DNA from: Nanopusillaceae archaeon
GTDB taxonomy: Archaea; Nanobdellota; Nanobdellia; Nanobdellales; Nanobdellaceae
Reading direction: 5' to 3'
NCBI GenBank assembly: GCA_038833255.1
Contig: JAWBIX010000005.1
Location: forward strand, 1 to 19,089
Length of the DNA: 19,089 nucleotides
The position numbers were made by a program, and so were the translations under genes. The notes below the pieces were generated by a model that had not been told where the DNA came from, did no database searches, and saw only the letters and a program-made list of their open reading frames with translations. Shown one piece after another: positions 1 through 17,768 of this stretch (the first letter of the stretch is position 1; every line of letters begins with the position of its first letter).

Positions 1-914
1 TTTATTGTTGTTTTTAGTTTTTCTTTTGTTTCTTTTATCATTAAATCTGAAGATGTTAATAATTTATCTCCAGCTTCTCTTGAAGGTTTAATAATTCCTT
101 TAGCTAATAATTGTTTCCAAGCAATATATATTCCTCTATCATAAAAAGCTATTCCATCTCTTAAAAAAGTGTATATAACCGGATTCGCTTCTGCTAAAGA
201 ATACCAAAATTCTGTTAGAGTATAAACTTGAGGATGTAAAATTTTCTTGGAATTTAAAATAATTTGACATTCTACTGCCTTAGAACCAACTATTTGATAA
301 AGTTTTGATTTTAATTCTTCATAAGTATGTTTTTTAACATCAGTATCATCTATAATCACGTAAACATCTACATCTGATGTTTCTACATTTCTTCCCTTAA
401 CTTGTGATCCTGCTAAAGCATATGCTACAACATACTTAGAAAAAGTTTCTAAAAGAAGATTTTTGTGTAAAACAACCAATTTAAATATTTCTAATATTCC
501 CCTATCATATATTATCTCCCCGCTAGCAAGTAAATCTAATAAATCAAATCTAGAATCCATAGAAATATCTCTTATATCAGACATCGTTAAAATATGTATC
601 CACAAATTTAGATTTTTTTCTTTAACAAAGTTTATTATATTTTCAAGGATCTCATATTTAATTTTTAATTTATCTTCAATTAATTCTAAATCGTAATCCG
701 ATATTAATATTACCAAATGGTCTTTACTTTTTAATTCCTTCTCATATCTTTTTTTAAATTCTTCAATATCCAAATTATCTATCCTTCTAACGTAAAAATA
801 CAAATCTTCTAATAATTTTACTATTTCTTCTTTTTTTTCTTTAAAAATTTCTATACCTAAAATTCTTTCTTTAAATTTAGATTTATCTAAATATTCTAAA
901 ATTTCCTTTTCCAT
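1..914 (-). CDS. Pol-beta-superfamily nucleotidyltransferase-domain protein, C-terminus cut by window edge
   Basis: The minus-strand frame is open from ATG (914-912) to position 3. It is absent from the ORF track because no stop lies in the window. Hand translation: MEKEILEYLDKSKF...YVVAYALAGSQVKGRNVETSDVDVYVIIDD...FLRDGIAFYDRGIYIAWKQLLAKGIIKPS... The G-S...SDVD + hydrophobic strand + DD pattern is the minimal NTase signature. The upstream half (..DHLVILISDYD...LASGEIIYDRGILEIF..) looks like a degenerate second copy. Confidence 0.6.
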   Translation of the reverse strand, partial: MEKEILEYLDKSKFKERILGIEIFKEKKEEIVKLLEDLYFYVRRIDNLDIEEFKKRYEKELKSKDHLVILISDYDLELIEDKLKIKYEILENIINFVKEKNLNLWIHILTMSDIRDISMDSRFDLLDLLASGEIIYDRGILEIFKLVVLHKNLLLETFSKYVVAYALAGSQVKGRNVETSDVDVYVIIDDTDVKKHTYEELKSKLYQIVGSKAVECQIILNSKKILHPQVYTLTEFWYSLAEANPVIYTFLRDGIAFYDRGIYIAWKQLLAKGIIKPSREAGDKLLTSSDLMIKETKEKLKTTI

Positions 915-938
915 TTTAATCAAATATTTAAAATGATT

Positions 939-1433
939 TTATATATTTTTTCTTAACCATTTAAGTAAATTTTCTAAATCTATTTCGTCTTTTTTTTCAG
1001 TTTTAATTTCTTCTTCTTTTTTAATAAAAATCATACTAACAATTTTATTTTTTAAGTTTTCTAATTCTAAACTATCTGCTTTTTTTCTGGGTAATATTAA
1101 CTTTATATCGTCCCCATCAAATCTTGGAAATATTTCTATAGAAATATGTTTTGTTTTTTCATAATCTTTATTTAAATATAATAAAATAACTATTTTATTA
1201 GTATTAAAAATTATCTTTAAAACTTCTGACAACTTTTTTGCTAAAACAAACATCTTAACATATATTCCGTCGTCTAAATTATTTAAATCTTCGTAATGTT
1301 TTCTTGGAAATATTATCAAATGTCCTGGATTTACTGGAAAAATATTTAAAACGCATACTATGTCTTCGTCTTCATATATTTTATAAGATGGAATTATATT
1401 TTCTGCTATTTTACAAAATATACATTCATCCAT
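939..1433 (-). CDS. HIT-fold (histidine triad family) protein with a degenerate triad
   Basis: 164-aa ORF. The N-terminus CIFCKI....P..KIYEDEDIVCVLNIFPVNPGHLIIFPRKH is typical of HIT/Hint proteins. The position of HxHxHxx reads K-H-I-S-I-E-I-F-P-R (1134-1148). It has a K/E-rich C-terminal tail. Confidence 0.75.
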   Translation of the reverse strand: MDECIFCKIAENIIPSYKIYEDEDIVCVLNIFPVNPGHLIIFPRKHYEDLNNLDDGIYVKMFVLAKKLSEVLKIIFNTNKIVILLYLNKDYEKTKHISIEIFPRFDGDDIKLILPRKKADSLELENLKNKIVSMIFIKKEEEIKTEKKDEIDLENLLKWLRKNI

Positions 1434-1466
1434 AAAATTTTAATTAAAAATAATAATAAAATTTTT

Positions 1467-2414
1467 ATGATAAAAATATTTTTAGCTATATTAAGTATAA
1501 AATTAGCAGCTCTTGCAACATATTTAACAACCGAAATATTATCCAAATACGTCTATTCTTATTCTAAGGATTTTGGATATATGGGTAAAATCTTTCTATT
1601 TGTTTATTCAGGATTAATATTTATTCTACTACCTTTGATAACTTCTATAAATTTAGCATTAATTGGAGAATCAAATTTAGCATATTATAATATTTTGTAT
1701 AATGTTCTATTGGATGCTACTATATCTAGTGGAATATTAATTTTAATAAGCAAAAAAGACGAAAAAATAATTCTTGATAAAAAGATAATATTTATCACAT
1801 CTTTAATCTTTACTATAAACATATTTTTGATAATTAAAGGGTTTTTAAATATGCTCGATTCCTTTGTTTTATTCTTTTTATTTATTTTTTCTTCTTTATA
1901 CTTATTAAAAAGTAATATAGAGAAATCTAATTATAAAAGCTTTAAAAATAATAAAAACATAGTAGATCTTTTATTTAAAATCTTTTTTATTTTAATTTCT
2001 TTTATTATTTTTATTATTTGCAGTCAAATCTTATCTTATAGCGCTATTTATTTAAAAAATATTTTAAATAATGCTCCTCTAGTTGCTTATATAATTAACC
2101 TAATATCTAATACTGCACCTAATTTTCTTTTTGGATATATGATTTATAAAGAATCTAAAAACTTTGAAGAAGCACATTTATCCATATTTGGACAATTTTT
2201 TTATTCATTTACCATTTGTATAGGAATTATTTGCGGTATTCTTCCAATATTGTTTACTAATAAAGACGTTATAGTATTGCTTTCTTCTTTTATAGCTCTG
2301 TATTCATCCATGATAATTTTTAATCTATATGCATATGGACATTCTCTTCCTAAAGAAGTTGGAATATTTTTAATAATGTTAGGTCTATTAGTTGGCTTAA
2401 TAACAATATATTAA
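1467..2414 (+). CDS. Polytopic integral membrane protein (possibly a highly diverged CaCA/YrbG-like cation antiporter)
   Basis: 315-aa ORF with ~9-10 hydrophobic segments. Two weakly similar segments (..ALIGESNLAYYNIL.. and ..LISNTAPNFLFGYMIY...LSIFGQFFYSF..) loosely recall the two alpha-repeats (GTSLPE...GNxxGS) of Na+/Ca2+ exchanger-type proteins, but without the acidic residues. The family call is weak. Confidence 0.55.
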   Translation: MIKIFLAILSIKLAALATYLTTEILSKYVYSYSKDFGYMGKIFLFVYSGLIFILLPLITSINLALIGESNLAYYNILYNVLLDATISSGILILISKKDEKIILDKKIIFITSLIFTINIFLIIKGFLNMLDSFVLFFLFIFSSLYLLKSNIEKSNYKSFKNNKNIVDLLFKIFFILISFIIFIICSQILSYSAIYLKNILNNAPLVAYIINLISNTAPNFLFGYMIYKESKNFEEAHLSIFGQFFYSFTICIGIICGILPILFTNKDVIVLLSSFIALYSSMIIFNLYAYGHSLPKEVGIFLIMLGLLVGLITIY

Positions 2415-2439
2415 AAATTTATCGACATGTATTTAACTA

Positions 2440-2556
2440 ATGAGAAGAAGTTCGAGAAGATGGAAAAAATATAGAAGACCTCGTTGGAAATGGCAAAAGA
2501 AAAGAATGAAAGAAGAAAAAAGATTAAGAAAATTAGCAAGATTGAGGGCAATATAA
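2440..2556 (+). CDS. rpl41e: 50S ribosomal protein L41e (38 aa; below ORF-track size cutoff)
   Basis: Hand-translated ATG..TAA: MRRSSRRWKKYRRPRWKWQKKRMKEEKRLRKLARLRAI. It is extremely basic. The RWKWxKKRM core matches the eL41 signature (eukaryotic [21 protein letters not shown]). Confidence 0.7.
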   Translation: MRRSSRRWKKYRRPRWKWQKKRMKEEKRLRKLARLRAI

Positions 2557-2570
2557 ATATTTAAAAATTA
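2556..2570 (+). promoter_or_regulatory. Candidate TATA/BRE promoter of the 16S rRNA precursor
   Basis: AATATTTAAAAATTA is centred ~26-30 nt upstream of the first G+C-rich nucleotides of the leader (hairpin starts at 2594). A second TATA-like run lies at 2581-2593. Confidence 0.35.
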
Positions 2571-2593
2571 TCTTATACGATTTAATATATATA

Positions 2594-2647
2594 CCCTGTA
2601 GGGTCTCACCTGCAGATATGATGAAGCAGGTATCTCCTACAGGGAAA
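2594..2647 (+). ncRNA. H/ACA-like guide hairpin with K-loop in the 16S 5' leader (candidate)
   Basis: - Lower stem: 9 bp, CCCUGUAGG (2594-2602) / CCUACAGGG (2636-2644).
- Internal loop: GUCUC (2603-2607) / AUCU (2632-2635).
- Upper stem: 6 bp, ACCUGC (2608-2613) / GCAGGU (2626-2631).
- Apical loop: 12 nt, AGAUAUGAUGAA, able to form tandem sheared G.A pairs (C-box-like UGAUGA opposite AGA).
- An A-run (ANA position) starts 14 nt after the upper stem. Confidence 0.35.
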
Positions 2648-2673
2648 AAATGTGGAGATATCCGAAAATGGAA

Positions 2674-2689
2674 GAGATTATCCCGGATT
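2674..2689 (+). promoter_or_regulatory. 5' arm of the 16S rRNA processing helix
   Basis: GAGATTATCCCGGATT is the exact reverse complement of 4235-4250 (16/16 bp). The two arms bracket the 16S gene. Confidence 0.8.
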
Positions 2690-2738
2690 GCGGCCGTACT
2701 TCTCGGGTTTAGGCCCGCGGTGGGGTAAACCCCACCGA

Positions 2739-4228
<1,490 letters not shown>

Positions 4229-4234
4229 TAGTTA

Positions 4235-4250
4235 AATCCGGGATAATCTC
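4235..4250 (+). promoter_or_regulatory. 3' arm of the 16S rRNA processing helix
   Basis: AATCCGGGATAATCTC is the reverse complement of 2674-2689. It starts only 7 nt after ...GCUGGAUC. Confidence 0.8.
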
Positions 4251-4262
4251 CAAAATTTCAAA

Positions 4263-4268
4263 TTTTTT
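4263..4268 (+). terminator. Oligo-T tract downstream of 16S (candidate archaeal terminator)
   Basis: A TTTTTT run lies 13 nt after the processing-helix arm. Archaeal RNAP terminates at oligo-T tracts. Confidence 0.35.
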
Positions 4269-4286
4269 AATTTCAAAATCTTTTAT

Positions 4287-5534
4287 ATGTTTGAAATAAA
4301 AAATAGAGATATTGCTGGAAGAATTGGAATTTTAAAAATTAGCAACAAAAAAATAGAAACTCCTCTTTTATTACCTGTAATAAATCCAAAAAAACAAGAA
4401 ATTTATCCGAAAGAAATGCAAGATAAATATAAAGTTAATGCCATAATGACAAATGCTTATATTATATATTCTGACAAAAAATTAAGAGAAACTTTATTAG
4501 AAACTAATTTAAATAAATTTTTTAATTTTTCAGGAGTAATAGAAACCGATTCTGGATCATACCAGATCTTACACTATAAAAAAGACATTGATGTTTCAAA
4601 TAAAGAAATAGTTAAATTTCAAATAGAAATTGGAAGCAATATAATAAATGTTTTAGATTTACCTACAGATATTGATAAAAATTGGGAAGAGGCTAAGAAA
4701 GAACTAGAAATAACAATCAATAGAATTAGAGAAGGTATAGAAATTAGAGATTCTTTAAATAAAAACGTTTTAATTAACGGTGCTATTCAGGGAGGGATAT
4801 ATTTAGATCTAAGAAAACAAGCTGCAATAGAAGTTAGTAATTTAAACGTTGATATATACGCTATAGGAACTATAGTTCCATACATGATAAAGTATGATTT
4901 TTGTAAATTATTTGAAACAATAATGGTACCTAGAGTTCTTTTACCCTTAGATAAACCCGTTCATTTATTCGGATTAGGACATCCTCTAACAATTCCTTTA
5001 TCTATAGCTATAGGATGTGACATTTTTGACTCGGCATCTTATGCTTTGTATGCAGACGATAATAGAATAATGACGCACTATGGAACTTTTAGACTAGAAG
5101 AATTGGAAGATTTTTACTTAGAAACAAAAAACAAATGCTATCATATTTCAGAAATAAAAGAAATGCAAAAAGAAGAAAAAACAAAAATAATTGCTGAACA
5201 CAATCTATTTGTATTATTAAAAGAAATTTCTATAATTAAAGATTCTATAAAAAATCAATATTTATTTGATATTATTTTATTTAAAGCACATTATCACAAA
5301 TCTCTATATAAAGCTACAAAATATATATTAGAAAAGTTTTATTATTGGCTCAAAAAATTAGATCCTATAAGAAAACGTAGTGGAATTGTTTATGGCGGAG
5401 ATTTACTGGAGATAAGAACAGATGTGAAAAGAGCAATAGAAAGATTGAATGAAAGAGTAGATCCTAAAGATTTCGAAGATATTTATAAATATGTTTTTCC
5501 TTTTAACAGTATAAAAAATGATAAGATATTATGA
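4287..5534 (+). CDS. tgtA: Archaeosine tRNA-guanine transglycosylase (ArcTGT), catalytic domain only
   Basis: 415-aa ORF. It shows MFEIKNRDIAGRIGILK...IETPLLLPVINP, TNAYIIY, ETDSGSYQ (catalytic Asp), HLFGLGHP, FDSASYALYA and AEHNLF, all characteristic of ArcTGT. It lacks the C-terminal C2/PUA domains of ~580-aa homologues. Confidence 0.85.
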   Translation: MFEIKNRDIAGRIGILKISNKKIETPLLLPVINPKKQEIYPKEMQDKYKVNAIMTNAYIIYSDKKLRETLLETNLNKFFNFSGVIETDSGSYQILHYKKDIDVSNKEIVKFQIEIGSNIINVLDLPTDIDKNWEEAKKELEITINRIREGIEIRDSLNKNVLINGAIQGGIYLDLRKQAAIEVSNLNVDIYAIGTIVPYMIKYDFCKLFETIMVPRVLLPLDKPVHLFGLGHPLTIPLSIAIGCDIFDSASYALYADDNRIMTHYGTFRLEELEDFYLETKNKCYHISEIKEMQKEEKTKIIAEHNLFVLLKEISIIKDSIKNQYLFDIILFKAHYHKSLYKATKYILEKFYYWLKKLDPIRKRSGIVYGGDLLEIRTDVKRAIERLNERVDPKDFEDIYKYVFPFNSIKNDKIL

Positions 5535-6012
5535 AAAAGTAATAAAAAGAGAAATAAGAAGAACAAGAAGATTTAGAAAAAATAGTTATATAAAAATTAT
5601 TGGAATTTTATCTAATGTTTATGATTTTTCTATGCAAATTATAGAAAAAATATCTAAAAAACATAATTTAAATATAAAAATTGATAAAATAATATACGAA
5701 AATTTAACAGATGTCAAGTTAGAAGAAAATGCTATATTTATAATTCCATTAGAAGGAGTTTTCTTGTCTTATCTTTTATATAACGTTAATAACAATGAAA
5801 AATATTATTTTATTTTTAAAAAATACAAAAATTTAAATATTAGCTATAAAGTCTCAGAATATGTATTATCAAAATATATAAACAAAATTCCATACTCAAT
5901 AGATAAAACATACAATAAAATCATAGAGTTTATGTACAAACTCTTTGAAAAAAATGAAAAATACGCTATATCCTTAGGAAAATTTTTAGATTATATTGAA
6001 AAATATTATTAA
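5518..6012 (+). CDS. Hypothetical protein (weak resemblance to a decayed PP-loop ATPase N-domain)
   Basis: 164-aa ORF overlapping tgtA by 17 nt. A basic N-terminus is followed by KIIGILSNVYDFSMQIIEKISKK, where PP-loop enzymes have hhhhhSGGxDSxxhhxhh. There is no intact motif. Confidence 0.4.
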   Translation: MIRYYEKVIKREIRRTRRFRKNSYIKIIGILSNVYDFSMQIIEKISKKHNLNIKIDKIIYENLTDVKLEENAIFIIPLEGVFLSYLLYNVNNNEKYYFIFKKYKNLNISYKVSEYVLSKYINKIPYSIDKTYNKIIEFMYKLFEKNEKYAISLGKFLDYIEKYY

Positions 6013-6037
6013 ATTTTTATCTATCTAATTAATTTCT

Positions 6038-6448
6038 ATGCCAATATTCAAATTAAGAGGATATACTTTAGAAGAACTTCAAAAAATGTCATTAGAGGAA
6101 TTTATGATAAAAGTTGCAAACGCTAGATTAAGAAGAACTTTATCTAGAAGACTAAAATTTGGTTTTCCACCAGAATGGGAGAGATTTTATGAAAAGTGTA
6201 AATTACAAAAAGAAGGAAAATATAATAAACCTGTAAAAACCCATTCCAGAGAAATTCCAATTTTGCCTTTTATGGTAGGTTGTAAAATTGCTGTATATAA
6301 TGGAAAAGAATATGTAGAATATGAAGTAAAACCAGAAATGATCGGAAGAAGAGTTGGAGAATTTTCATTTACAACAAAGAAAGTTAAACATTCTGCACCA
6401 GGAATTGGAGCTTCTAGATCATCTAGATTCTTAAAAGCCGGTAAGTAA
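6038..6448 (+). CDS. rps19: 30S ribosomal protein S19 (uS19)
   Basis: 136-aa ORF. It shows ..RGYTLEELQKMSLEEF...ARLRR.L.R.........KTHSREIPILPFMVGCKIAVYNGKEYVEYEVKPEMIGRRVGEFSFTTKKVKHSAPGIGASRSS, matching archaeal S19p / eukaryotic S15. Confidence 0.9.
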   Translation: MPIFKLRGYTLEELQKMSLEEFMIKVANARLRRTLSRRLKFGFPPEWERFYEKCKLQKEGKYNKPVKTHSREIPILPFMVGCKIAVYNGKEYVEYEVKPEMIGRRVGEFSFTTKKVKHSAPGIGASRSSRFLKAGK

Positions 6449-6449
6449 A

Positions 6450-7274
6450 CTAAAAATTAAATAAAGTATAGATATTTAAAGATTTTGGAAACATTGGGAT
6501 TACTAATTTAAATATAATAAGTGTAAGAAATAAAAAAATAATAGAATGTTTTAGCCCTGCTTTATAAGATCCTTTATACATCTTTCCTATAGCTAATCCA
6601 GAAAAGAACGATTGTACTATAGATATTATATATAAATTTGAACTTATATCTTCTGTTCTAATTCTACTTCCATTTTCTAAATTAGAAATATCTAAAAAAG
6701 GCACTAGAAATATTATCATTATCAGAGAAGTTATAAGGAAAAAGAAAAATACAATATAAGAATGAATTACATTTTCAAACAATAACGATTCTCTCTGTTT
6801 TTTTAATTGTCTTACTTCTTTTATAGATTTTACTGCTGCTTCTAATCCTTTATCTAATTCTCCTCCAGATTTATATATATTAATTACACTTTTTATTATT
6901 TTAGAAATTGTTTTATTATTACATTCTTCAGAAAATAATGCAAAAGATTCTACAATTCCAACCCCCCAATCAATTCTTGCGGATAGATTTTTTATTGCCC
7001 TGTTTAAAGGTCCATAATCTGCTTTTTCTAAATAATTTAACGCAATTGGAAGCGGAATACCAGATCTTAAAAGTTCAACAAGATCTATTGAAAATCTAAA
7101 AAAACTATTTTCTTTTATTTCTTCTTTTTTTGAAATATAAGAGTAGTATAACAATGTTGGTAAAGAAGATAAAACTATTGATGTAATTAAAACATCCTCA
7201 AAAGGATAATTTAGATTTGAAAAAATAAAATATAAAAAGAAAAATAGAATTACTGATATTATTTCTACTTTCAT
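6450..7274 (-). CDS. FlaJ/TadC-like type IV filament platform protein, C-terminal half (single T2SS-F domain)
   Basis: 274-aa ORF. It has N-terminal TM helices, then a cytoplasmic helical domain FSIDLVELLRSGIPLPIALNYLEKADYGPLNRAIKNLSARIDWGVGIVESF...IINIYKSGGELDKGLEAAV, then TM helices (T2SS-F/FlaJ repeat architecture). Its start overlaps the upstream stop as ATGA (7271-7274). Confidence 0.75.
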   Translation of the reverse strand: MKVEIISVILFFFLYFIFSNLNYPFEDVLITSIVLSSLPTLLYYSYISKKEEIKENSFFRFSIDLVELLRSGIPLPIALNYLEKADYGPLNRAIKNLSARIDWGVGIVESFALFSEECNNKTISKIIKSVINIYKSGGELDKGLEAAVKSIKEVRQLKKQRESLLFENVIHSYIVFFFFLITSLIMIIFLVPFLDISNLENGSRIRTEDISSNLYIISIVQSFFSGLAIGKMYKGSYKAGLKHSIIFLFLTLIIFKLVIPMFPKSLNIYTLFNF

Positions 7275-8665
7275 ATTTCTAATTTAGAAATAAAAATCAT
7301 TACGCCTAAATTTATCATTGGGAGTACTACTAACGAAAGCAAATTAAGAAATTCTGAAATAGTTAGTCCAAAAATCGTTGGTGAAATTGCAGATAACATA
7401 ATTCCTACCGATATAATCAACATCGGCACTGTCAAAACCAAACCAACATATAAATCTGAAAAATTTTTCATTGTTTGATTTAATTTTTCTAAATCTGTTC
7501 TATAAAGTAATAGCTGGTTTTCTGTATATATCATAAAAAATTCTTTTACATTTCTACCAGATCTCAATGTTAAAAGTAGCTCATCTAAAAACTCTCTAAA
7601 TCTTTCAGAAGGAGTAGTATCACGAACATGTTCTATTGCATCAGAAATGCTAATTCCTGTATTTAACAAATCTGCTAATCTCTTAAATTCTAAAGATAAA
7701 GCACCGTAATCGTCTGTTTCTGCTACCAATCTAAAACACGTTTCTATATCTATTCCAGTTTGAAGTAAAGATAATATATGAACTGATAAAAAAGGAAGAT
7801 TCGTATCTATTTCTCTTTTAATTAAGTTTTCTTTATAGTTTATATAAAGATATAACACTATTGGAAAGAGAAAGATAAAAATAAATAATATTGCAATAAG
7901 TAAAATTTCATATAAGTATATAAATAAGAATAAAAAAATTGACAAGAGAATAAAAAATGAAAAAAATATTAATGATAAAAATTCTGATGGATTTAAATTT
8001 ATTTTTCCTTTAAATATTATTTTTCTTAAATTATAATGAAAAATTGGATATTTATCCAAAATATATCCAGATATTTTTCCAAAAATCAGATAGGATATAT
8101 CTACAAAAATCTTGTAAAAGTCTATTTTTTCTAAATCTTTTTTTATTTTTTTTCTAATTTTATAAAAATCTTCAATATTCTCTCTTTCTTTTTTAGATAT
8201 TTTTTTAGTTTCTATTTTTTTTATTTTATCTATATCTATAATTCTTTCCGCTCTACTTAATTCTTCTTCTATTTCAGAAATTTCAGAGTAGATTTTTTGA
8301 TTTTCTGGTTTATATTCCAAAATTGGAGATACAATTTCCTTTATACTTTCAAAAATTTTCTTCTTAGATTCTTCTTCAATTGAATAATTTTCCTTTATAT
8401 ATTCTGTCAATAATGAAATATTGTGCTTTATTTTGCCAAAATATATATATATTTTTGATTCTAACTTTAAGATTTTTTCATTAATTTTTCTTAGCTGTAA
8501 ATAATAGTTTTCTTTAGAAATTTCAGAAAGTTTATATTTTATTTCTAATTCCCTTTTTCTATTTAATAATTTATTTAGAATATTATAAGTTTTTTTAATA
8601 TCTTTTATAAGCAAAAATATTGATTGTACTATTTTATTTGCAAATTCTAGAGACTCTCCTCTCAT
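7271..8665 (-). CDS. FlaJ/TadB-like platform protein, N-terminal half, with ~190-aa K/E-rich coiled-coil extension
   Basis: 464-aa ORF. Residues ~1-190 are predicted helical and charged. TM helices follow, then LPFLSVHILSLLQTGIDIETCFRLVAETDDYGALSLEFKRLADLLNTGISISDAIEHVRDTTPSERFREFLDELLLTLRSGRNVKEFF (T2SS-F/FlaJ repeat), then more TM helices. Confidence 0.75.
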   Translation of the reverse strand: MRGESLEFANKIVQSIFLLIKDIKKTYNILNKLLNRKRELEIKYKLSEISKENYYLQLRKINEKILKLESKIYIYFGKIKHNISLLTEYIKENYSIEEESKKKIFESIKEIVSPILEYKPENQKIYSEISEIEEELSRAERIIDIDKIKKIETKKISKKERENIEDFYKIRKKIKKDLEKIDFYKIFVDISYLIFGKISGYILDKYPIFHYNLRKIIFKGKINLNPSEFLSLIFFSFFILLSIFLFLFIYLYEILLIAILFIFIFLFPIVLYLYINYKENLIKREIDTNLPFLSVHILSLLQTGIDIETCFRLVAETDDYGALSLEFKRLADLLNTGISISDAIEHVRDTTPSERFREFLDELLLTLRSGRNVKEFFMIYTENQLLLYRTDLEKLNQTMKNFSDLYVGLVLTVPMLIISVGIMLSAISPTIFGLTISEFLNLLSLVVLPMINLGVMIFISKLEI

Positions 8666-8675
8666 TATATTTTAT

Positions 8676-8683
8676 TTTAAATA
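8676..8683 (+). promoter_or_regulatory. TATA box for the FlaI-like gene
   Basis: TTTAAATA lies at -34..-27 from ATG 8710. This is consistent with a leaderless or near-leaderless mRNA. Confidence 0.45.
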
Positions 8684-8691
8684 TCTCAAGA

Positions 8692-8700
8692 TTATATAAA
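8692..8700 (-). promoter_or_regulatory. TATA box for the split FlaJ operon
   Basis: The minus strand reads TTTATATAA at -35..-27 from ATG 8665. It mirrors the FlaI TATA within the 44-bp divergent spacer. Confidence 0.4.
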
Positions 8701-8709
8701 ATTATAATT

Positions 8710-10209
8710 ATGGAAATTATGCTAAACTTAAAACCAAAAATTCCAGTAATTGAAATACCTAAAAAACTTGAAGATACAAATATTGTTTATCCTTTAATTG
8801 AGCCTTTTGCTTATGCAAAAATATATTACAATAAAAAAAGAGCAACAATATTATATGAAGTTTTAGAACCTGCTTTGTCAGAAGATGAAAAAAAGCTTTT
8901 AGATTCAATAAAAATGGGAATAAAAGATCTATTATTTGTAAAATTATCAGATATAGAAGATTATAAGAAAGCTATAAGTTATTTAGAAAGATTATATAAA
9001 ATTTTATTAAAAGAACTATCAATAAAATTAAATAAAAAACAATATCAAAAAATCTTTTACTATGTTTTTAGAGATATATATGGATATGGAAAAATAGAAC
9101 CTCTTATGAGGGATCCGTTCATTGAAGATATTAGCTGTACTGGAACTCTATCTCCGATATACATCGTACATAGATTTTTTGGAAATCTAGAAACAAATAT
9201 ATTTTTTTCGGATGAAGAAGAAATCTTAGATATTATAGAAAAATTTGCTCTTAGATCAAAAAAATATATATCTTATTCCGATCCAATTTTAGATGCAACA
9301 CTACCTGATGGATCTAGAGTTAATGCTACATATTCAAAGGAAATTACAACCAGAGGTCCTACTTTTACAATTAGAAAATTTAAAGAGAATCCGTGGACTC
9401 CTATTGATTTAATTAAGTTAGAAACTGCTAGCCCAGAAATGCTCGCATATTTATGGCTAGCTATCGAATATAAAAGAAATATAATAATAATAGGAGGTAC
9501 TTCATCTGGAAAAACTACTTTTCTTAATGCTATTTCAATGTTCATACCTCCTTCAGCTAAAATAGTTTCAATAGAAGATACTAGGGAAATTAAATTATAT
9601 CATAAAAACTGGATTCCTTCAACTGTAAAATACTCTAGTGATAAAAGTAAAGAAATAGATATGTTCGTTTTGTTAAAAGAGGCTATGAGACAAAATCCGA
9701 ATTATTTAATAGTTGGTGAAGTTAGAGGGAAGGAAGCGTATGTTATGTTTCAGGCAATGGCGTCTGGACATGCTTCTTTATCTACAATGCATGCAGAATC
9801 TACAAACTCGTTAATTTATAGATTAACATCCCCGCCAATAAATTTATCTGAAAGCTTAGTAAACCTATTAGATATATCTATCTTAATGTTTCACGATGTT
9901 TCTACAGGAAGAAACGTGAGAAAAGTAAAACAAATCGACGAAATTATTAATAGCAAAGAATATAACACTATTTTCTATTGGGATCCTTTTGAAAAAAAAT
10001 TTAAAACAAATTATAAATCACATGTACTATACAAAATACATAGAGAATATGGAATACCTTATGAAGATATTGTTAAAGAGCTAATAATAAGAAGTAAATT
10101 ACTACATAAACTTTCATTTTATAATTTATCTCCCGAGGATTTCTTTAAAGTTATTAATACTTATTATTTTAACAAAAAATATATTTTGGAATTATTTAAA
10201 ATTTCTTAA
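8710..10209 (+). CDS. flaI: FlaI/ArlI-type type II/IV secretion-family ATPase (archaellum or type IV pilus assembly)
   Basis: - Motifs: Walker A IIGGTSSGKTTFLNAI, Asp box IVSIEDTREI, Walker B NYLIVGEVRGKEA, His box GHASLSTMHA.
- N-terminal YPLIEPFAYAKIYYN....ILYEVLEP is typical of archaeal FlaI.
- I chose the start at MEIMLNLK (8710) rather than the ORF-track 8620, which overlaps the divergent gene and promoter. Confidence 0.88.
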   Translation: MEIMLNLKPKIPVIEIPKKLEDTNIVYPLIEPFAYAKIYYNKKRATILYEVLEPALSEDEKKLLDSIKMGIKDLLFVKLSDIEDYKKAISYLERLYKILLKELSIKLNKKQYQKIFYYVFRDIYGYGKIEPLMRDPFIEDISCTGTLSPIYIVHRFFGNLETNIFFSDEEEILDIIEKFALRSKKYISYSDPILDATLPDGSRVNATYSKEITTRGPTFTIRKFKENPWTPIDLIKLETASPEMLAYLWLAIEYKRNIIIIGGTSSGKTTFLNAISMFIPPSAKIVSIEDTREIKLYHKNWIPSTVKYSSDKSKEIDMFVLLKEAMRQNPNYLIVGEVRGKEAYVMFQAMASGHASLSTMHAESTNSLIYRLTSPPINLSESLVNLLDISILMFHDVSTGRNVRKVKQIDEIINSKEYNTIFYWDPFEKKFKTNYKSHVLYKIHREYGIPYEDIVKELIIRSKLLHKLSFYNLSPEDFFKVINTYYFNKKYILELFKIS

Positions 10210-10220
10210 AAAATTTTTTT
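10208..10220. terminator. Bidirectional A6/T7 tract between the FlaI stop and the 23S 3' flank
   Basis: AAAAAATTTTTTT gives T7 on the plus strand (after flaI) and T6 on the minus strand (after the 23S processing-helix arm). Confidence 0.4.
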
Positions 10221-10227
10221 AGGGGTC

Positions 10228-10244
10228 GAGGGTTATATAACCCA
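10228..10244 (-). promoter_or_regulatory. 3' arm of the 23S rRNA processing helix
   Basis: GAGGGTTATATAACCCA (plus strand) is the exact reverse complement of 13186-13202 (17/17 bp). Confidence 0.8.
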
Positions 10245-13185
10245 CGGGCGATTGGGAGCGGTCGGCTCACTCCTCGGAAACCCTCGGAGCTTACACCGCC
10301 GCCCCATCAACGGGGTCTTCTACCCCAGCCCTTAACGGCCGCCTATTTTCGGGGTGGGGTTCGCCCTTAGATGCTTTCAGGGCTTACCCCTTATGGCGTA
10401 GCTACCGGGCTTGCCCTCGTCGGACAGCCCGTCCACCAGTGGCCACGGACCGCCGTTCCTTTCGTACTAGGCGGTCCTTCCCCTCAGGCGGCCAGCACCC
10501 CCGACAGTTAGAGACCGAACTGCCTCGCGGCGTTCTGAACCCATCTCACGACCCCTTTTAATGGGTGAGCACCCCCACCCTTGGCGGCTTCTGCACCGCC
10601 AGGATAGGGGGAGACGACGTCGAGGTCACGAACCGCGGGGTCGATGTGGGCTCTCGCCCGCGACTGTGCTGTTACCCCCGGAGTAGCTTTTCCGCCAGCC
10701 CATACCCCCACCAATGGGAGTATGGGGTTCGCTAGGCCCGGGTTTCCCCCCTGCGCCCCTTGATGGTCGGGGCGCAGTCAGGCCGGCTTTTGGCCTTGTC
10801 CTCCACAGCGGAGTTCTGACCCGCTTGAGCCGACCTTTTGGACCCCGCCGATATCTTTTCGGCGGGGTGCCGCCCCAGCCAAACCGCCCACCTGCCGCTG
10901 TCCTCTTCCGAGTTAGTTCCAAAGGGTCCAGAGGCGGGTGTTTCATGGACGCATCCCTTCAACCTAGCGGCTGAAGTTCATCGCTCCCCGCTACGCTACA
11001 CACTGGACCCTTTGGAACAACGGCAGGCTGCGGTTAAGCTTCACGGGGTCTTTTCTACCCATCGGGGGTCCCTGGCCTTCTCACCAGGACGGCAGGTTCA
11101 GGGGGTCCCGGCCAGGGACAGTGGCGGGCTCGTTACACCGTTCGCAAAGCCGGCATTTAACCGGCAAGGCATTACGCTACCTTAAGAGGGTCAGAGTTAC
11201 CCCCGCCGTTTACCGGCCCTTAGCCCCCTTGAACGGGGGGTTCAGGTACCGGCACTGGGCAGGTGTCGCCCCCGGTAAAAACCCTTTCGGGCTATCCGGG
11301 AGCTATGTTTTTGATAAACAGTCGGCCCGCCCTTGTCACTGCGACCTGCGGTAGCAGGATTATCCCACTACCGCAGGCACCCCTTCTCCCGAAGTTACGG
11401 GGCCAATTTGCCGAGTTCCCTTGGCCGGGTTACCCCCACGGCCTTAGGCTTCTCACCCAGGGGACCAGTATCGGTGTGCGGTACGGTCACCCGGGATCGT
11501 TTCCCTTTCCCTTTTCATAGCTGCCAGGCCTCGGCGGAAATTCAGGGATTGAGCCGGTTCTCGCCATTACGGCACTCCCCGGCCCTATTCCCCTTATCGG
11601 AGGTAAGTAGGTTTTACCCTACCCCTCCGTCCGCCTAGCCCGACAGGTCGGGAAAGGGACTTGCGTTGCCGCACCTACCCGGGTGGTAGGGGAATATTAA
11701 CCCCTTTCCCTTTCCCCATACTCCTCTCGGAGTATGGGTTAGGACCGACTAACCCCCAGTTGATCTTCATTGCTGGGGAAACCTTTCCCCCTTCGGCCAA
11801 CGGGATTCTCACCCGTCTGATTCCTACTACCGCGGGGATCTTCATTCCGGACGGCTCCAGAGCCCCTTTCGGAGCTCCTTCTAGGCCATCCGGACGCCCG
11901 CCTACCTCACGCGGATCAAAGATCCGCGGACCTGGGTCTCGGCGGCCGGCTTAGACCCGTCCGTTTTCGAGGCCTACCCCCTCGCCGGGTGAGCTGTTAC
12001 GCACTCCTTAGATGATGGCTGCTTCTAAGCCTACATCCCCGGTGTCTTAGGGGGTAGACACTCTTCCTTTTCACTTAGCCGGCACTTTGGGGCCTTAACC
12101 CAGGTCTTGGTTGTTCCCATCTCGGATACGCGGCTTTCCCGCGTACCCCGTTTCCCGGGATCTACGGATCTACCGGCTTCGGAGTTGGACTCCGTAGGGA
12201 TAACCCCTACGGAATCCGTAGCTCTACACCGGTAGAATCCTCCCCCGAGACTTGACTGCAGCCAATTTCGGCGGGGACCGGCTATCACCGGGCCCGATTG
12301 GCTTTTCACCCCTACTCCGAGGTCATGAGAGGGATTTTTCCCACCTCTTCGGGCCTCCACGGGGGTTTCCCCCCGCTTCGCCCTGCCTCGGAGTAGATCG
12401 CCCGGTTTCCGGTCGTATCCGAGTGACTATCCGCTCTTTCGAACGGGTCCCCTCGCGGTAAACCCGCTGCGGGATCTCGGTTTCCCTACGGCTTCGGGGA
12501 TAAACCCCTTAACCTCGCCACTCGGATACACTCCCCCGCACGTTCTTCCAAACGTACGGCAAGACAGGTTAATCTTACGGTTGTACTCGCCCGTTGCCGA
12601 GGCTTTCCAACCGTAAGACCTAACCTGCCTTGCCCGACTATCCCTACCCGGTTTCAGGCTCTTTTCACTCCCTGTCACGGGTTCTTTTCACCGTTCGGTC
12701 GCCCTACTATGCGCTATCGGACTCGGGGAGTATTTAGCCTTGGGGGTTGGTTACCCCCAACTTCCCGACGGAAATCCAACCGCCGGTACTCCGGAAGTGG
12801 GGATATCCTGTTATAAAAACCCCTACGGGACTGTCACCCTCTACGGTCCCGGACTTCCACCGGAGTTCGGAGTTTTTATAACAGGATATCCCCCACCCCT
12901 TAACACCACATCTCCTCTGAGTTACCTCAGAGGATTAGGTTTAGGCTTTTCCCCGTTCGGTCGCCCCTACTAGGGGAATCACACTTTGTTTTCTTTTCCT
13001 GCGGGTACTGAGATGTTTCACTTCCCCGCGTTCCCCTCCCTTACGGGATGTTCGGATTTTATCCGAACGGGAGTTCCCATTCGGGGATCCGCGGATCTTC
13101 GGTTGCATGCACCTCCCCGCGGCATTTGGCCGCTTGCCGCCCCCTTCTTCGGCTCCCGAGCCCAGGCATCCACCGGGTAGGTTAC
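10245..13185 (-). rRNA. rrl: 23S (LSU) rRNA, archaeal, ~2.94 kb
   Basis: - The minus strand begins GUAACCUACCCGGUGGAUGCCUGGGCUCGGGAGCCGAAG.
- It contains the sarcin-ricin loop CCUAGUACGAAAGGAACGG and CUGAAAGCAUCUAAG near the 3' end.
- It is G+C-rich throughout. The length leaves no room for a large intron. The ends are approximate. Confidence 0.97.
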
Positions 13186-13202
13186 TGGGTTATATAACCC
13201 TC
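13186..13202 (-). promoter_or_regulatory. 5' arm of the 23S rRNA processing helix
   Basis: TGGGTTATATAACCCTC (plus strand) pairs with 10228-10244 in the minus-strand precursor. The core GGGTTATATAACCC is itself palindromic. Confidence 0.8.
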
Positions 13203-13230
13203 TCATTCCCCTCATCTTTAATCAGAAGTC

Positions 13231-13256
13231 TCTCCCTTACCTTTCAGTAAGGGAGA
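13231..13256 (-). other. Perfect 10-bp hairpin in the 23S 5' leader
   Basis: The minus strand reads UCUCCCUUAC-UGAAAG-GUAAGGGAGA. It lies ~25-45 nt downstream of TATA-like runs (13262-13295), so it is probably at or near the 5' end of the pre-23S transcript. Confidence 0.5.
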
Positions 13257-13318
13257 TCATACTATTGTTAGATATAATCTAGCAATATTTTAAAATCTTT
13301 ATAAATTGTTGTAAAATT

Positions 13319-14995
13319 ATGATTGAATTGGAGAAAAAAGAAAACTTTTCCGAATGGTATAATCAAATAATTAGAAAAGCGGAAATAATTGATGACAGAT
13401 TTCCTGTAAAAGGAATGCCCGTATATCCACACTATGGATTTTCCATAATAAAAAATATTTTTTCAATTTTAGAAAAAATGTTAGATAAAGAAAAGTATAG
13501 AGCTATATGGATGCCGATTCTAATTCCAAAAGAAATATTTCAAAAAGAAGAGGAGCATATTCGTGGTTTTGGAAGCGAAGTATTTTACGTAAAACCTAGC
13601 AACCCTCTAGAAGAAGAAAAAGAAATATATTATATACTTAGACCAACGTCAGAAACAGAACTTTATTATATGTTTTCTTTATGGATTAATTCCTACAAGG
13701 ATTTACCACTTTTAGTTTATATGACTAACACTGTTTATAGATATGAAACAAAAGCAACAAAACCTTTAATTAGAGGTAGAGAAATTTTGTGGATAGAAGC
13801 TCATACTGCTCATAAGGATATTGATGATGCTTACAAAAACGTCAAAAAGTCTATGGAAATTTATTCCTACTTATTTTGGAATGTTTTATCGATTCCCCAT
13901 GTTTGGGTCGTAAGACCAGATTGGGATAAATTTGCAGGAGCCCAAAAAACTTTCGCAGCAGATACTATATTAGCTGATGGTAAATTTTTACAGATAGGTA
14001 CGACACACATGCTTGGTCAAAATTTTTCAAAAGCATTCGATATAAAATTTCAGGATAAGCATCCATACGTAAAAATCTCAGAGAATACTTTTGAAGCAAA
14101 AAACAAAAATGGGGAATATAAATTTATAATAAATATTTTCGATAATACTATAGAAGTTAAATTTTATGAAAAAAATATTGAAAAAGCAAAAATTTTAGAT
14201 AAAATTGAATTCTCTGGAGAGATATCTGAAGATAATGAGGAATTAATTGAAAAAATTAATAAAATATTAGAAAAACATTTTCCAAAAGAGTTTTTAGATT
14301 TAGATAACAATAAATATGTTTGGCAAACCTGCTTTGGAGTATCTATGAGATTATTAGCTGCGGTAATAGGAATACATGGTGATGATAATGGTTTAGTTTT
14401 GCCTTTTAGTATTGCACCAATACAAATAATTATAATTCCAATATATTATTCCGAATCTGAAAAAAATAAAATTTTAGATTACTGTAAAAAAATAAAAAAT
14501 ATTCTTTCCAATAAATATAGAGTAGAAATTGATGACAGAGATGATAAAACTCCAGGATGGAAATTCAATTACTGGGAAATGAAAGGAGTACCAATTAGAA
14601 TAGAAATTGGATTTAAAGAATTAGAAAGTACAACTGTAACACTTTGTGATAGATTAACTAAAAAAAGAAAATCTATTCATTTAGACAAAATTGAAGAGTG
14701 TATAGAAGAGATTTCAAATGAGATGGATTTAAAACTAAAAGAGCGTAGTAAAAAATTTTTTGAAGAAAGCATAATAAAGGTTACCTCCATAGAGGATCTA
14801 AAAAATGTTATAGAAAACAAAAAAGCAGCTAAAATTCCTTTTTGTCTAAATGAAGAATGTGGTAAAAAGTTAAAAGATACCTTAAATATTGATGTTCGTG
14901 GCTATGATATAATTCCGGAAGTTGCTGAAGATTTTGAATGTATTATTTGTAAAAATAAAGCAAAATATTGGTGTTATGTTGGAAAAAGTTATTAG
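13319..14995 (+). CDS. proS: Prolyl-tRNA synthetase, archaeal/eukaryote-like type, with an ~84-aa insertion
   Basis: 558-aa ORF. It shows FSEWYNQIIRKAEIIDDRFPVKG, LRPTSET, VYRYETK.TKPLIRGREI.WIEAHTAH, GQNFSKAF, WQTCFGVSMRLLAAVIGIHGDDNGLVLP, the anticodon-binding block IDDRDDKTPGWKFNYWEMKGVPIRIEIG, and a Cys-rich C-terminal domain ending in Tyr. Confidence 0.92.
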   Translation: MIELEKKENFSEWYNQIIRKAEIIDDRFPVKGMPVYPHYGFSIIKNIFSILEKMLDKEKYRAIWMPILIPKEIFQKEEEHIRGFGSEVFYVKPSNPLEEEKEIYYILRPTSETELYYMFSLWINSYKDLPLLVYMTNTVYRYETKATKPLIRGREILWIEAHTAHKDIDDAYKNVKKSMEIYSYLFWNVLSIPHVWVVRPDWDKFAGAQKTFAADTILADGKFLQIGTTHMLGQNFSKAFDIKFQDKHPYVKISENTFEAKNKNGEYKFIINIFDNTIEVKFYEKNIEKAKILDKIEFSGEISEDNEELIEKINKILEKHFPKEFLDLDNNKYVWQTCFGVSMRLLAAVIGIHGDDNGLVLPFSIAPIQIIIIPIYYSESEKNKILDYCKKIKNILSNKYRVEIDDRDDKTPGWKFNYWEMKGVPIRIEIGFKELESTTVTLCDRLTKKRKSIHLDKIEECIEEISNEMDLKLKERSKKFFEESIIKVTSIEDLKNVIENKKAAKIPFCLNEECGKKLKDTLNIDVRGYDIIPEVAEDFECIICKNKAKYWCYVGKSY

Positions 14996-15226
14996 GTGGC
15001 CGTAAGCCGTTTTTAGTATCTATTCTTCTAATCGGCAACCTTTTACCGGCGGGTCTTCTTTCTCAAGATACCGAAGGGCTCTCCAAGGTTGCCTCAGGTT
15101 ACCCCGAGGCATTGCCTTTTCATTTTCATATACCCTTCGGCTCTTTATTTCTTATGAAGTTGCCGGGGATTTCTCCCCCCGACTTACGTCGGCGCCCTAC
15201 GGTAAACGGACTTTCCAACGGCCACC
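14995..15226 (-). ncRNA. rnpB: RNase P RNA (reduced form, 232 nt)
   Basis: - Minus strand: GGUGGCCG-UU-GGAAAGUCCG...AGAAGAAU-AGAU-ACUAAAAACGGCUUA-CGGCCACC.
- Conserved regions: CR-I GGAAAGUCC (15208-15216), CR-IV AGNNNNAU (15022-15029), CR-V ACNRAA..GGCUUA (15003-15017).
- P4 forms from AAG(U)CCG/CGGCUU with a bulged U. P1 is an 8-bp terminal helix.
- Tandem GNRA hairpins sit in P8/P9-like positions, followed by a P10/11-P12-like arm.
- It is a G+C-rich island with a TATA box at -33..-25. Confidence 0.85.
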
Positions 15227-15230
15227 TATA

Positions 15231-15237
15231 TTTATAA
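15231..15237 (+). promoter_or_regulatory. TATA box for the Sec61-beta gene
   Basis: TTTATAA lies at -30..-24 from ATG 15261, directly abutting the RNase P RNA +1 on the other strand. Confidence 0.4.
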
Positions 15238-15250
15238 GTTTCTCTTAAAA

Positions 15251-15259
15251 TATTAAAAA
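15251..15259 (-). promoter_or_regulatory. TATA box for the RNase P RNA gene
   Basis: The minus strand reads TTTTTAATA at -33..-25 from the first G of GGUGGCCG (15226). Confidence 0.45.
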
Positions 15260-15260
15260 T

Positions 15261-15431
15261 ATGACTACAAAGAAAGTAGAAATTTCCCCTATTAGAAGCT
15301 TTGCCGGAATATTTAAATTTGGAAAAGAGAAATCTAAACTAGCTATAGATAAAAACACTTTAATAGCTTTAGCAATTATTCTGTCTATTTTAATATTAGC
15401 TGCTCATCTTTTATTTAAGTATTTTATATAA
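15261..15431 (+). CDS. secG: Preprotein translocase subunit Sec61-beta / archaeal SecG (56 aa; below ORF-track cutoff)
   Basis: Hand translation: MTTKKVEISPIRSFAGIFKFGKEKSKLAIDKNTLIALAIILSILILAAHLLFKYFI. The AG(L/I)xx(F/Y) motif, followed by a short linker and a single C-terminal TM anchor, matches archaeal Sec-beta architecture. Confidence 0.55.
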   Translation: MTTKKVEISPIRSFAGIFKFGKEKSKLAIDKNTLIALAIILSILILAAHLLFKYFI

Positions 15432-15437
15432 AAAACT

Positions 15438-17764: not shown

Positions 17765-17768
17765 ATCT

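Follow-up and report, generated by a model that had tools for sequence, protein, structure and literature searches.

A conserved hairpin at the 5' end of the 16S rRNA leader of Nanopusillaceae archaea: a candidate H/ACA-type module within an rRNA precursor

Can an archaeal 16S rRNA precursor carry an H/ACA-type element within its own leader, and could such an element act on the rRNA with which it is transcribed? The question is raised by a stretch of 19,089 nucleotides from a Nanopusillaceae archaeon (GenBank assembly GCA_038833255.1, contig JAWBIX010000005.1, positions 1 to 19,089 of the forward strand), the whole of which is hereafter called the window, and in which a hairpin lies between the 16S promoter and the 16S rRNA gene. 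An earlier reading of the sequence, called here the original prediction, took this hairpin for an H/ACA-like K-loop hairpin and proposed that its internal loop, or pocket, might guide a pseudouridylation in the helix-24 (790) loop of the 16S rRNA. On the comparative sequence evidence presented here, the hairpin is a selected and conserved RNA element formed by the first ~55 nt of the pre-16S rRNA. We consider it somewhat probable that it constitutes a leader-embedded H/ACA-type protein-binding module with the architecture of the single-hairpin archaeal box H/ACA RNAs, and its action as a guide on its own transcript is a more tentative proposal.

The leader hairpin and its relatives

The hairpin drawn in the original prediction is borne out, in its coordinates, stems and loops (Table 1), by the sequence and by RNA folding. 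The minimum-free-energy fold of positions 2585-2660 is the described hairpin (-26.1 kcal/mol) with one extra pair, G2603.U2635; its z-score is -3.16, and none of 200 shuffled sequences is as stable. Two other readings of the same nucleotides were rejected: a box C/D reading of the loop motif AUGAUGA, which is not conserved in the related leaders L220, L224 and L015 and comes with neither terminal C/D boxes nor a guide arrangement, and a pairing of 2631-2637 (UAUCUCC) with 2654-2660 (GGAGAUA), which is possible in the window and is not kept in L220 or L224.

About 25 homologous leaders (numbered loci with the prefix L) were collected by scans, in genomes by means of the 16S 5' end and in metagenomes by means of the leader box. 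Look-ups with the gene of the archaeosine tRNA-guanine transglycosylase (TGT) added two close relatives, L220 (85% protein identity) and L224 (72%), and the more distant L230 (62%); nine of the 12 TGT look-ups gave contigs that break inside the 16S gene or do not have the gene order of the window, including that of N. equitans, where the TGT gene is not beside the 16S gene. A scan of viral contigs for further relatives returned unrelated collagen-like repeats only. The nearest leaders and neighbouring proteins are those of the Nanopusillaceae (Nanoarchaeota), namely strain YN1, Nanopusillus acidilobi, Nanobsidianus stetteri and several metagenome-assembled genomes. These leaders share a common layout, in which a small basic open reading frame (ORF) is followed by a TATA box, the 5' hairpin, an A-N-A trinucleotide, an AUGU mini-hairpin ending in GAAA, one strand of the processing stem, a box of the GCGGCCGUACUUYUCGGG type and the 16S gene. 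The hairpin stands at the equivalent position, after the small ORF and the TATA box, in eight related leader lineages.

The changes accumulated between these leaders point to a selected RNA structure. RNAalifold, applied to the five leaders that carry a K-loop (the window, L220, L224, L015 and L092), recovered both stems, with changes on both sides at six pairs. With the structure held fixed, 85% of the cells of this alignment pair and the covariation reaches 0.437, against 0.248 +/- 0.046 in shuffled alignments (none of 500 attains the observed value); when the register of the hairpin alignment is slid, the covariation falls to 0.06-0.24, in all cases far under that of the true register. Covariation is seen at four of the six pairs of the upper stem. 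In the lower stem we find a G-C to C-G change in L224, G-C to A-U and U-A to U.G changes in L092, an A-U to U-A change between L037 and L230, an A-U to G-C change in Nanopusillus, and other pair types in L015 as well. Furthermore, the window, L092, L230 and two metagenomic variants (L159 and L160) contain G.U pairs, which on the opposite strand would read as A.C; the structure therefore belongs to the plus-strand RNA and not to the DNA.

The beginning of the transcript was placed by the spacing of the promoter. In N. equitans, the TTTAAA element lies ~27 nt before the start of transcription (PMC3491384). Measured in this way from the TATA-like box of the window, transcription would start at about 2587-2593, that is, 1-7 nt 5' of the hairpin, which would then occupy the extreme 5' end of the transcript. 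Since the window sequence between the hairpin and the 16S gene has neither a second TATA box nor a T-run longer than three, the hairpin should belong to the pre-16S leader.

H/ACA-type geometry, candidate partners and fate of the leader

The hairpin combines a lower stem of 9 bp, in which all pairs are standard and which compares with ~7-9 bp or more in archaeal H/ACA RNAs, a K-motif above the internal loop, and an A-N-A box at the spacing expected of an H/ACA RNA. The K-motif itself conforms to the sequence pattern of K-loops and K-turns, with tandem G.A/A.G pairs predicted beside a helix and, opposite, either a loop or a bulge with a C-stem. The loops are AGAUAUGAUGAA in the window, AGAUACCUAUGAA in L220, AGAUUCAUGAA in L224, GGAUCAAUGAA in L015 and UGAUAGAUGAU in L092, so that the pattern N-GA-(5-6 nt)-GA-N is kept in all five despite wholly different closing stems. 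Of the two registers that the original prediction allowed for the sheared pairs, the one it gave as its example, G2615.A2624 with A2616.G2623, is the register conserved in the relatives, and the other is not conserved. In L037 and L230, a true K-turn stands at the height of the K-loop, made of GA, an apical C-stem hairpin, a 3-nt bulge ending in U (NNU) and GA; its C-stem is compensatory between the two (CAGGG/CCUUG and CUGGGU/ACCCGG, respectively).

The distances between these parts are also conserved. The K-loop or K-turn lies 6-7 bp above the small internal loop in the seven pocket-bearing lineages, the upper stem of the window having 6 bp; in archaeal H/ACA RNAs the K-loop lies 5-6 nt above the pocket, and the interchange of K-turns and K-loops is known (PMC7991803). 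In each of the seven, 13-15 nt separate the upper stem from an A-N-A box, although the lower stem ranges over 8-11 bp and the 3' loop strand over 3-5 nt; in archaeal H/ACA RNAs the corresponding distance is 14-16 nt, with a trade-off between guide strand and lower stem (PMC4652768). Five lineages have ACA as the box that follows the lower stem, L220 and L224 have AUA and the window has AAA, which means that the two outer adenines are kept while the middle base varies. In the alignment of the leaders, A2645 falls opposite the stem-closing U of L224, and AAA at 2646-2648 falls opposite the AUA of L220 and L224 and the ACA of the other relatives. Covariation, together with the K-motif and box spacing of the relatives, thus supports the structural part of the original prediction, a K-loop hairpin of H/ACA type with which the 16S leader begins.

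Such a combination is rare in background sequence. A crude descriptor (K-loop hairpin with A-N-A at 13-16 nt) gave 19 matches in 2.9 Mb, among them the leaders of the window, L015 and L092, and a covariance model built from the element matched 16S leaders alone in 353 kb of related DNA; with this model, a second copy was not found in the window or in the same 353 kb. An AT-rich element of L047 (4359-4415, plus strand), present also in L078, L129, L132, L144, L159 and L175, fits a loose descriptor of a K-loop hairpin followed by ATA (TTATTTCTGAT...GGATTGAAAGAGAA...AATAAATA); the stems of this element, which occupies seven Nanopusillus loci, are weak, and it is probably coding sequence.

As to the proteins, Cbf5, Nop10, L7Ae and Gar1 are not encoded within the 19-kb window. 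The published annotation of Nanobsidianus Nst1 lists arCOG00987 (TruB/Cbf5, Nst1_078), the Zn-ribbon RNA-binding protein arCOG00906/COG2260 (Nst1_407), and L7Ae (Nst1_339), all three of which are common to N. equitans. We take the COG2260 protein of Nst1 to be Nop10. N. equitans has, in addition, an expressed, bona fide H/ACA small RNA, and together with the Nst1 annotation this indicates that the H/ACA machinery exists in the group, possibly without Gar1.

The fate of the hairpin after transcription is suggested by one relative. L122 (metagenome contig Ga0040875_100003, 1,884 nt, of the Nanopusillus type) is a circular permutation of a 16S unit of ~1,572 nt, in which a junction, present twice, joins the trailer ...AAUCCCCAAA to the leader ACUGCAGCGG... 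(also given as ACUGCAGCGGAAU...), followed by the 16S 5' end; the two copies of the junction differ by a compensatory G-C to A-U change in the stem. To judge from its sequence, L122 looks like an assembled circular pre-16S rRNA that marks the leader and trailer cut sites. Its leader cut lies 3' of the hairpin, the box and the mini-hairpin, so that in this Nanopusillus-type precursor the hairpin would be released on the excised leader and not retained with the rRNA. In the window, the hairpin likewise lies outside and 5' of the processing stem, and the 3-nt bulges of the bulge-helix-bulge (BHB) type, at which the splicing endonuclease cuts archaeal leader-trailer helices ahead of ligation to a circle, are not evident in its 16-bp helix. 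A ligated leader-trailer product was not found in the collected contigs.

The mechanism that we propose brings these observations together in four steps. Transcription from the 16S promoter would place the hairpin first in the leader, as suggested by the TATA spacing and by the lack of a second promoter and of an oligo-T before the 16S gene, and it folds on the plus-strand RNA, as the covariation and the G.U pairs show. The K-loop would then be bound by L7Ae, and the lower stem and A-N-A box by Cbf5-Nop10, in keeping with the conserved geometry and with the proteins encoded in the related genome. Finally, the hairpin would depart with the leader upon cleavage of the processing stem and circularisation of the pre-16S rRNA, the cut site being taken from the Nanopusillus relative only. 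The function of the resulting particle is the least certain step: pseudouridylation of U3491, in the clade of the window, is a doubtful outcome, and it is about equally likely that the particle would act, without any guiding, as a handle for proteins, stabilising or chaperoning the leader and the early precursor.

Several observations weigh against an H/ACA-type module. The ~20 leaders of Nanopusillus and Nanobsidianus carry a perfect 16-bp hairpin followed by ACA, with no pocket and no K-loop, and hence the function shared by the whole family needs neither of them. The box of the window, AAA, lies within an A-run, and the AUA of L224 could pair with the 5' flank in an extended stem. The pockets are small, at most 6+5 nt, and that of L015 is able to close almost fully. 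The Rfam H/ACA models gave no match above threshold for the window, and the relatives match just generic microRNA-like hairpin families; the best H/ACA match of the window, in itself a weak point in favour, is to the third (last) hairpin of HgcG/Pab40 and has 15.3 bits (E = 0.035) for a gathering score of 77. The search with H/ACA covariance models that the original prediction had called for therefore did not go its way, the sub-threshold HgcG match in the window having no counterpart in the relatives. The Rfam archaeal H/ACA models known to us (HgcE, HgcF and HgcG) are built from Pyrococcus small RNAs, and this makes the failure with Rfam weak as negative evidence. GAR1 is missing from the arCOGs shared by the two sequenced nanoarchaea and appears only in a gain/loss table. 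In the window organism itself, we infer the start site, the protein binding and the fate of the leader alike.

The pocket, the 790 loop and the rival explanations

If the hairpin is an H/ACA-type module, does its pocket guide? The uridine designated by the pocket, U3491, is taken here to be U789 of E. coli, from the motif GGAUUAGAUACCC numbered 785-797. The polarity of the pairing is that of an H/ACA guide: the nucleotides on the 5' side of the target U pair with the 3' loop strand, and those on the 3' side of the U-N dinucleotide with the 5' loop strand. GGAU-UA-GAGAC, with its two nucleotides (U, A) unpaired, is the sole geometry-correct match in the 16S and 23S rRNAs of the window, and the match grows to 7+5 (GGGAU-UA-GAGACCC) if two pairs of the lower stem open, a 7-bp lower stem remaining. 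The bipartite complementarity reported in the original prediction, with this extension, is real, of the right polarity and confined to a single site in these two rRNAs. The G-C pairs on either side of both loops bring about some of the extended match by themselves. The proposed shuffled-sequence test has given a divided answer. With no more than one G.U pair, the probability of such a match by chance is 0.013 for random pockets, 0.026 when the letters of the pocket are permuted and 0.024 when the rRNA is shuffled and the pocket left as it is; with G.U pairs unrestricted, it rises to 0.09-0.23. The target that had been predicted for an N. equitans H/ACA RNA, '16S U796', was considered as the same site and rejected, as it lies ~43 nt from the 790-loop site in matched numbering.

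A working cis-encoded guide, in which the pocket would pair with the helix-24 loop of the same or of another pre-16S molecule and Cbf5 would make pseudouridine at U3491, is possible but, on our reckoning, improbable. It accounts for the unique match, within a hairpin of H/ACA geometry, and for the conservation of the pocket in the two closest relatives: GUCUC is invariant in L220 and L224, and the change of AUCU to AUCC in L220 turns the G.U pair with the target into G-C, giving nine Watson-Crick pairs. This same substitution, U2635 to C, also turns the intra-hairpin G2603.U2635 pair into G-C, and as the sole substitution in the pocket it is ambiguous, favouring neither a guide nor a structural role; within the clade, moreover, conservation is no higher in the pocket than in the stems. 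In the other clades the target site, GGGAUUAGAGACCCC, is identical in every relative, yet the pockets are unrelated (AAA/UUAA in L015, UGUA/GUC in L092, GGUGU/UCCGA in L037 and UGGUGU/UCUUG in L230), and no geometry-correct target, exact or with one mismatch, was found for these four in their own 16S or in the 23S rRNA of the window, while Nanopusillus has no pocket at all. The comparison of leaders for co-variation of pocket and target, which had been suggested as a check, has shown the pocket kept in the closest relatives and unmatched or absent beyond them.

The energies speak in the same direction. The core pocket-target duplexes amount to -5.0 and -0.5 kcal/mol at 37 C, for a target rRNA of 64% G+C, and the extended duplexes to -11.6 and -2.5 kcal/mol, at the cost of +6.5 kcal/mol for opening the two stem pairs and of opening the helix-24 hairpin (-11.1 kcal/mol) as well. 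In productive Pyrococcus guides, the cutoff is near -6 kcal/mol per duplex (PMC4652768), and the calculated energies of the window duplexes appear weak in comparison with it and for a presumed thermophile. The "GA stem", which runs between the pair closing the pocket and the second of the G.A pairs, has nine layers in the window and 10 in productive guides (PMC4652768). The claim of a cis guide for pseudouridine at U3491 is thus not established: its unique match is kept in the two closest relatives, whereas the pockets of the other clades are unmatched or absent and the duplexes are weak. More broadly, action of a leader H/ACA ribonucleoprotein (RNP) on its own transcript through the universally conserved helix-24 loop, either by pseudouridylation at E. 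coli position 789 or by keeping the platform region unfolded in early assembly, can be entertained only tentatively.

The same hairpin might recruit L7Ae and nothing else. The K-loop would then bring L7Ae to the nascent leader, as an RNA chaperone or to tie the synthesis of rRNA to the supply of ribosomal proteins, Cbf5 would play no part and the A-N-A would belong to another motif (ANA-N-AUGU...). No sequence feature of the hairpin is indeed better conserved than the GA...GA of the loop, the box stands before the conserved AUGU mini-hairpin and could be part of that motif, and L7Ae binds K-turns in the 5' untranslated regions of archaeal mRNAs (PMC5539422). We nevertheless judge this explanation unlikely, since the constant 13-15 nt between stem and box, despite the variable lengths of the parts in between, would be difficult to account for unless some protein gauges the two ends, since the box keeps its outer adenines whereas its central base may be C, U or A, and since Nanopusillus retains ACA but has no K-loop.

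The assumption of an ordinary 5'-terminal hairpin, which would protect the transcript end or mark it for processing and whose likeness to H/ACA RNAs would be coincidental, seems to us just as unlikely. It agrees with the perfect, featureless hairpin of Nanopusillus and Nanobsidianus, with the plain 10-bp hairpin, devoid of A-N-A, that also begins the 23S leader of the window, and with the lack of membership in any Rfam family. It leaves aside the interchange of K-loop and K-turn with covariation of the C-stem, the spacing from K-motif to A-N-A conserved in four clades, and the scarcity of matches to the descriptor in background sequence. A palindrome acting at the DNA level, for instance an operator through which a dimeric protein would regulate the rRNA promoter, would suit an inverted repeat at about +1 to +55 and the perfect 16-bp palindrome of Nanopusillus, but we reject it on account of the G.U pairs, which are A.C mismatches on the other strand, and of the compensatory changes along stems of up to 16 bp, and it does not account for the conserved asymmetric loop and 3' box.

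The locus, the known systems and the meaning of the leader module

The features of the locus are collected in Table 1. Outside the rRNA genes, the window genome has a G+C content of ~24%, and its rRNAs 60-65%. The gene order of the window is HIT-family protein, membrane protein, 38-codon basic ORF, 16S and TGT. A tRNA and tmRNA scan of the window gave no match, and Rfam at gathering thresholds recovered the rRNAs alone.

Table 1. Positions of the promoter, leader elements, rRNA genes and proposed target in the window.
Feature	Position	Strand	Evidence or remark
TATA-like box A TTTAAAAA	2560..2567	+	sequence; counterpart box at equal distance in all relatives
Lower stem, 5' strand CCCUGUAGG	2594..2602	+	9 bp with 2636-2644; fold; pair changes in relatives
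Internal loop (pocket), 5' strand GUCUC	2603..2607	+	complementary to 16S GAGAC 3493-3497
Upper stem, 5' strand ACCUGC	2608..2613	+	6 bp; 4/6 pairs changed on both sides across five leaders
K-loop AGAUAUGAUGAA, 12 nt	2614..2625	+	predicted sheared G2615.A2624 / A2616.G2623 over A2614.A2625 layer
Upper stem, 3' strand GCAGGU	2626..2631	+	fold and covariation
Internal loop (pocket), 3' strand AUCU	2632..2635	+	complementary to 16S GGAU 3487-3490, one G.U pair
Lower stem, 3' strand CCUACAGGG	2636..2644	+	sequence and fold
A-N-A box region	2645..2648	+	A-run from 2645, the 14th nt past the upper stem; leader alignment
Mini-hairpin after the box, AUG-U[GGA GAUA UCC]G-AAA	2650..2667	+	conserved; 4-bp stem covaries
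16S processing stem, leader strand GAGAUUAUCCCGGAUU	2674..2689	+	exact reverse complement of 4235-4250
Leader box GCGGCCGUACUUCUCGGG	2690..2707	+	at most one change in most related leaders; up to four in L220, L224, L230
16S rRNA gene	2739..4235	+	Rfam RF01959, 1408.5 bits
Proposed target GGAU-UA-GAGAC, helix-24 (790) loop	3487..3497	+	U3491 = 16S position 753
16S processing stem, trailer strand	4235..4250	+	16-bp helix with 2674-2689, just past the 16S 3' end
23S rRNA gene	10233-13197	-	unlinked to the 16S gene

The 38-codon ORF, MRRSSRRWKKYRRPRWKWQKKRMKEEKRLRKLARLRAI (2440-2557, plus strand), is very basic and adjoins the 16S promoter on its upstream side. A Pfam search with it gave no match, and it shows a weak NCBIfam likeness to residues 1-32 of archaeal ribosomal protein S4 (17.6 bits, far under the cutoff); many distant DPANN loci (e.g. 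L028, L076, L004 and L013) have similar ORFs 5' of their 16S gene. Farther along the leader, the 4-bp stem of the mini-hairpin occurs in the relatives as UAGA/UCUG, UGGA/UCCG and UGAG/CUCG, and the leader box GCGGCCGUACUUCUCGGG can pair with GGCCCGCGG at ~2712-2722. At its 3' end (4220-4235, plus strand), the 16S sequence ...CUGCGGCUGGAUC UAGUUAA runs directly into the processing stem; the CCUCC anti-Shine-Dalgarno sequence is absent there and from most of the Nanopusillaceae 3' ends read, the tail of L037 being different (GGAUCGCCCCCCC).

Related features are found elsewhere in the window and in other genomes. On the minus strand, the 23S leader has at 13231-13256 (with flanks to ~13221-13262) a 10-bp hairpin, UCUCCCUUAC / GUAAGGGAGA, with the loop UGAAAG, ~25 nt past a TATA-like box. 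AUGA precedes it and AGAC...CUGA comes after it, flanks that could form tandem G.A pairs (K-turn-like or C/D-like), and no A-N-A follows it. The 23S processing stem, also on the minus strand (13187-13202 and 10228-10243), consists of GAGGGUUAUAUAACCC / GGGUUAUAUAACCCUC, followed past a bulge by AGGGG/CCCCU, and its core is palindromic. In distant DPANN loci (L014, L073, L120, L008, L004, L097 and others), ~60-120 nt 5' of the 16S gene, there is a conserved hairpin AUGA-R-[UACUUAA...UUAAGUA]-Y-GAUG, that is, a helix with GA on both sides, which is K-turn-like; many of these loci also have an AUCRCCWCC box. From this pattern, K-motifs may be a widespread trait of the 16S leaders of DPANN archaea. 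Elsewhere in the window, an 89-codon ORF (16608-16877, plus strand) matches only positions 1-56 of the 302-position diphthamide-synthase profile; the gene may be split or a fragment, a common situation in Nanoarchaeota.

Among the known systems, the closest to the leader element are the archaeal single-hairpin H/ACA small RNAs (the Pab/Pf RNAs of Pyrococcus), which share with it the lower stem, the internal loop, the upper stem, the K-turn or K-loop, the ACA/ANA ~14 nt farther on and a promoter directly upstream. The two hairpins of the 159-nt H/ACA small RNA of N. equitans both have the K-turn layout of the L037 and L230 leaders (GA, hairpin, GAU-GA). These RNAs are free-standing, whereas the element of the window forms the beginning of a pre-16S leader and is separated from the rRNA by no terminator; its pocket measures 5+4 nt, against 9+7 and ~6+5 in the N. 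equitans RNA; and, unlike archaeal H/ACA small RNAs, it has AAA or AUA as its box in the clade of the window, a pocket that is not conserved in the family and is lost in one clade, and no Rfam H/ACA model above threshold. It cannot be filed as a proven guide RNA, because conservation of the target pairing fails across the family and membership in an H/ACA model is not found.

A precedent for guiding in cis does exist. In Euryarchaeota, the intron of the pre-tRNA-Trp contains a box C/D guide that methylates its own precursor, as was shown experimentally. The leader hairpin resembles it in lying inside the precursor of its proposed target, and differs from it in that the intronic guide belongs to the C/D class, directs 2'-O-methylation and has a tRNA as its substrate, and in that the cis action of the hairpin is predicted only. 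H/ACA scaffolds that serve for stability or for contacts with the pre-rRNA, besides or instead of pseudouridylation, are known in snR30/U17, which takes part in 18S processing, and in the H/ACA domain of telomerase RNA. snR30 pairs with the pre-18S RNA through its pocket (PMC7991803). Both of these RNAs act in trans, and the pairing of the leader hairpin has the canonical guide geometry, while that of snR30 is of the bottom-of-pocket type. The H/ACA-like small RNAs of Pyrobaculum, which are atypical pseudouridine guides, are not known to have a lower stem or an ACA box and have clear rRNA targets; the leader element, unlike them, keeps stem and box while its target is doubtful. These Pyrobaculum RNAs are reduced, non-canonical H/ACA hairpins that still carry a K-turn (PMC4652768). 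The L7Ae-bound K-turns of archaeal 5' untranslated regions are similar in having a K-motif near the 5' end of a transcript (PMC5539422), but they lie in mRNAs and affect translation, whereas the leader element lies in an rRNA and has an A-N-A at the H/ACA spacing.

In conclusion, our observations emphasize the 5' end of the pre-16S rRNA as a possible site of H/ACA-type assembly. The archaeal H/ACA RNAs so far known are free-standing small RNAs that guide pseudouridylation in trans, and our searches of the literature gave no description of an H/ACA element located in the leader or in a spacer of archaeal rRNA. According to a review, archaeal small RNPs that aid the processing or folding of rRNA are unknown (PMC8339473), and a snR30-like role in archaea is thought unlikely (PMC7991803). 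If the guide proposal is true, the leader hairpin would be the first H/ACA guide embedded in a leader, and the module could be an archaeal counterpart of the eukaryotic small nucleolar RNPs that act in processing or as chaperones (snR30/U17, U3). That the module is kept in Nanopusillus despite the loss of pocket and K-loop points to a non-guiding role, and the clades form a natural contrast between a pocket that matches the 790 loop, a pocket without a match, and no pocket. Conserved family-wide at the start of the 16S precursor of reduced-genome symbionts, the module could allow Cbf5, Nop10 and L7Ae to load co-transcriptionally, and the delivery of a guide in cis, with each rRNA molecule bringing one copy, would be an economy for a genome of 0.6 Mb.

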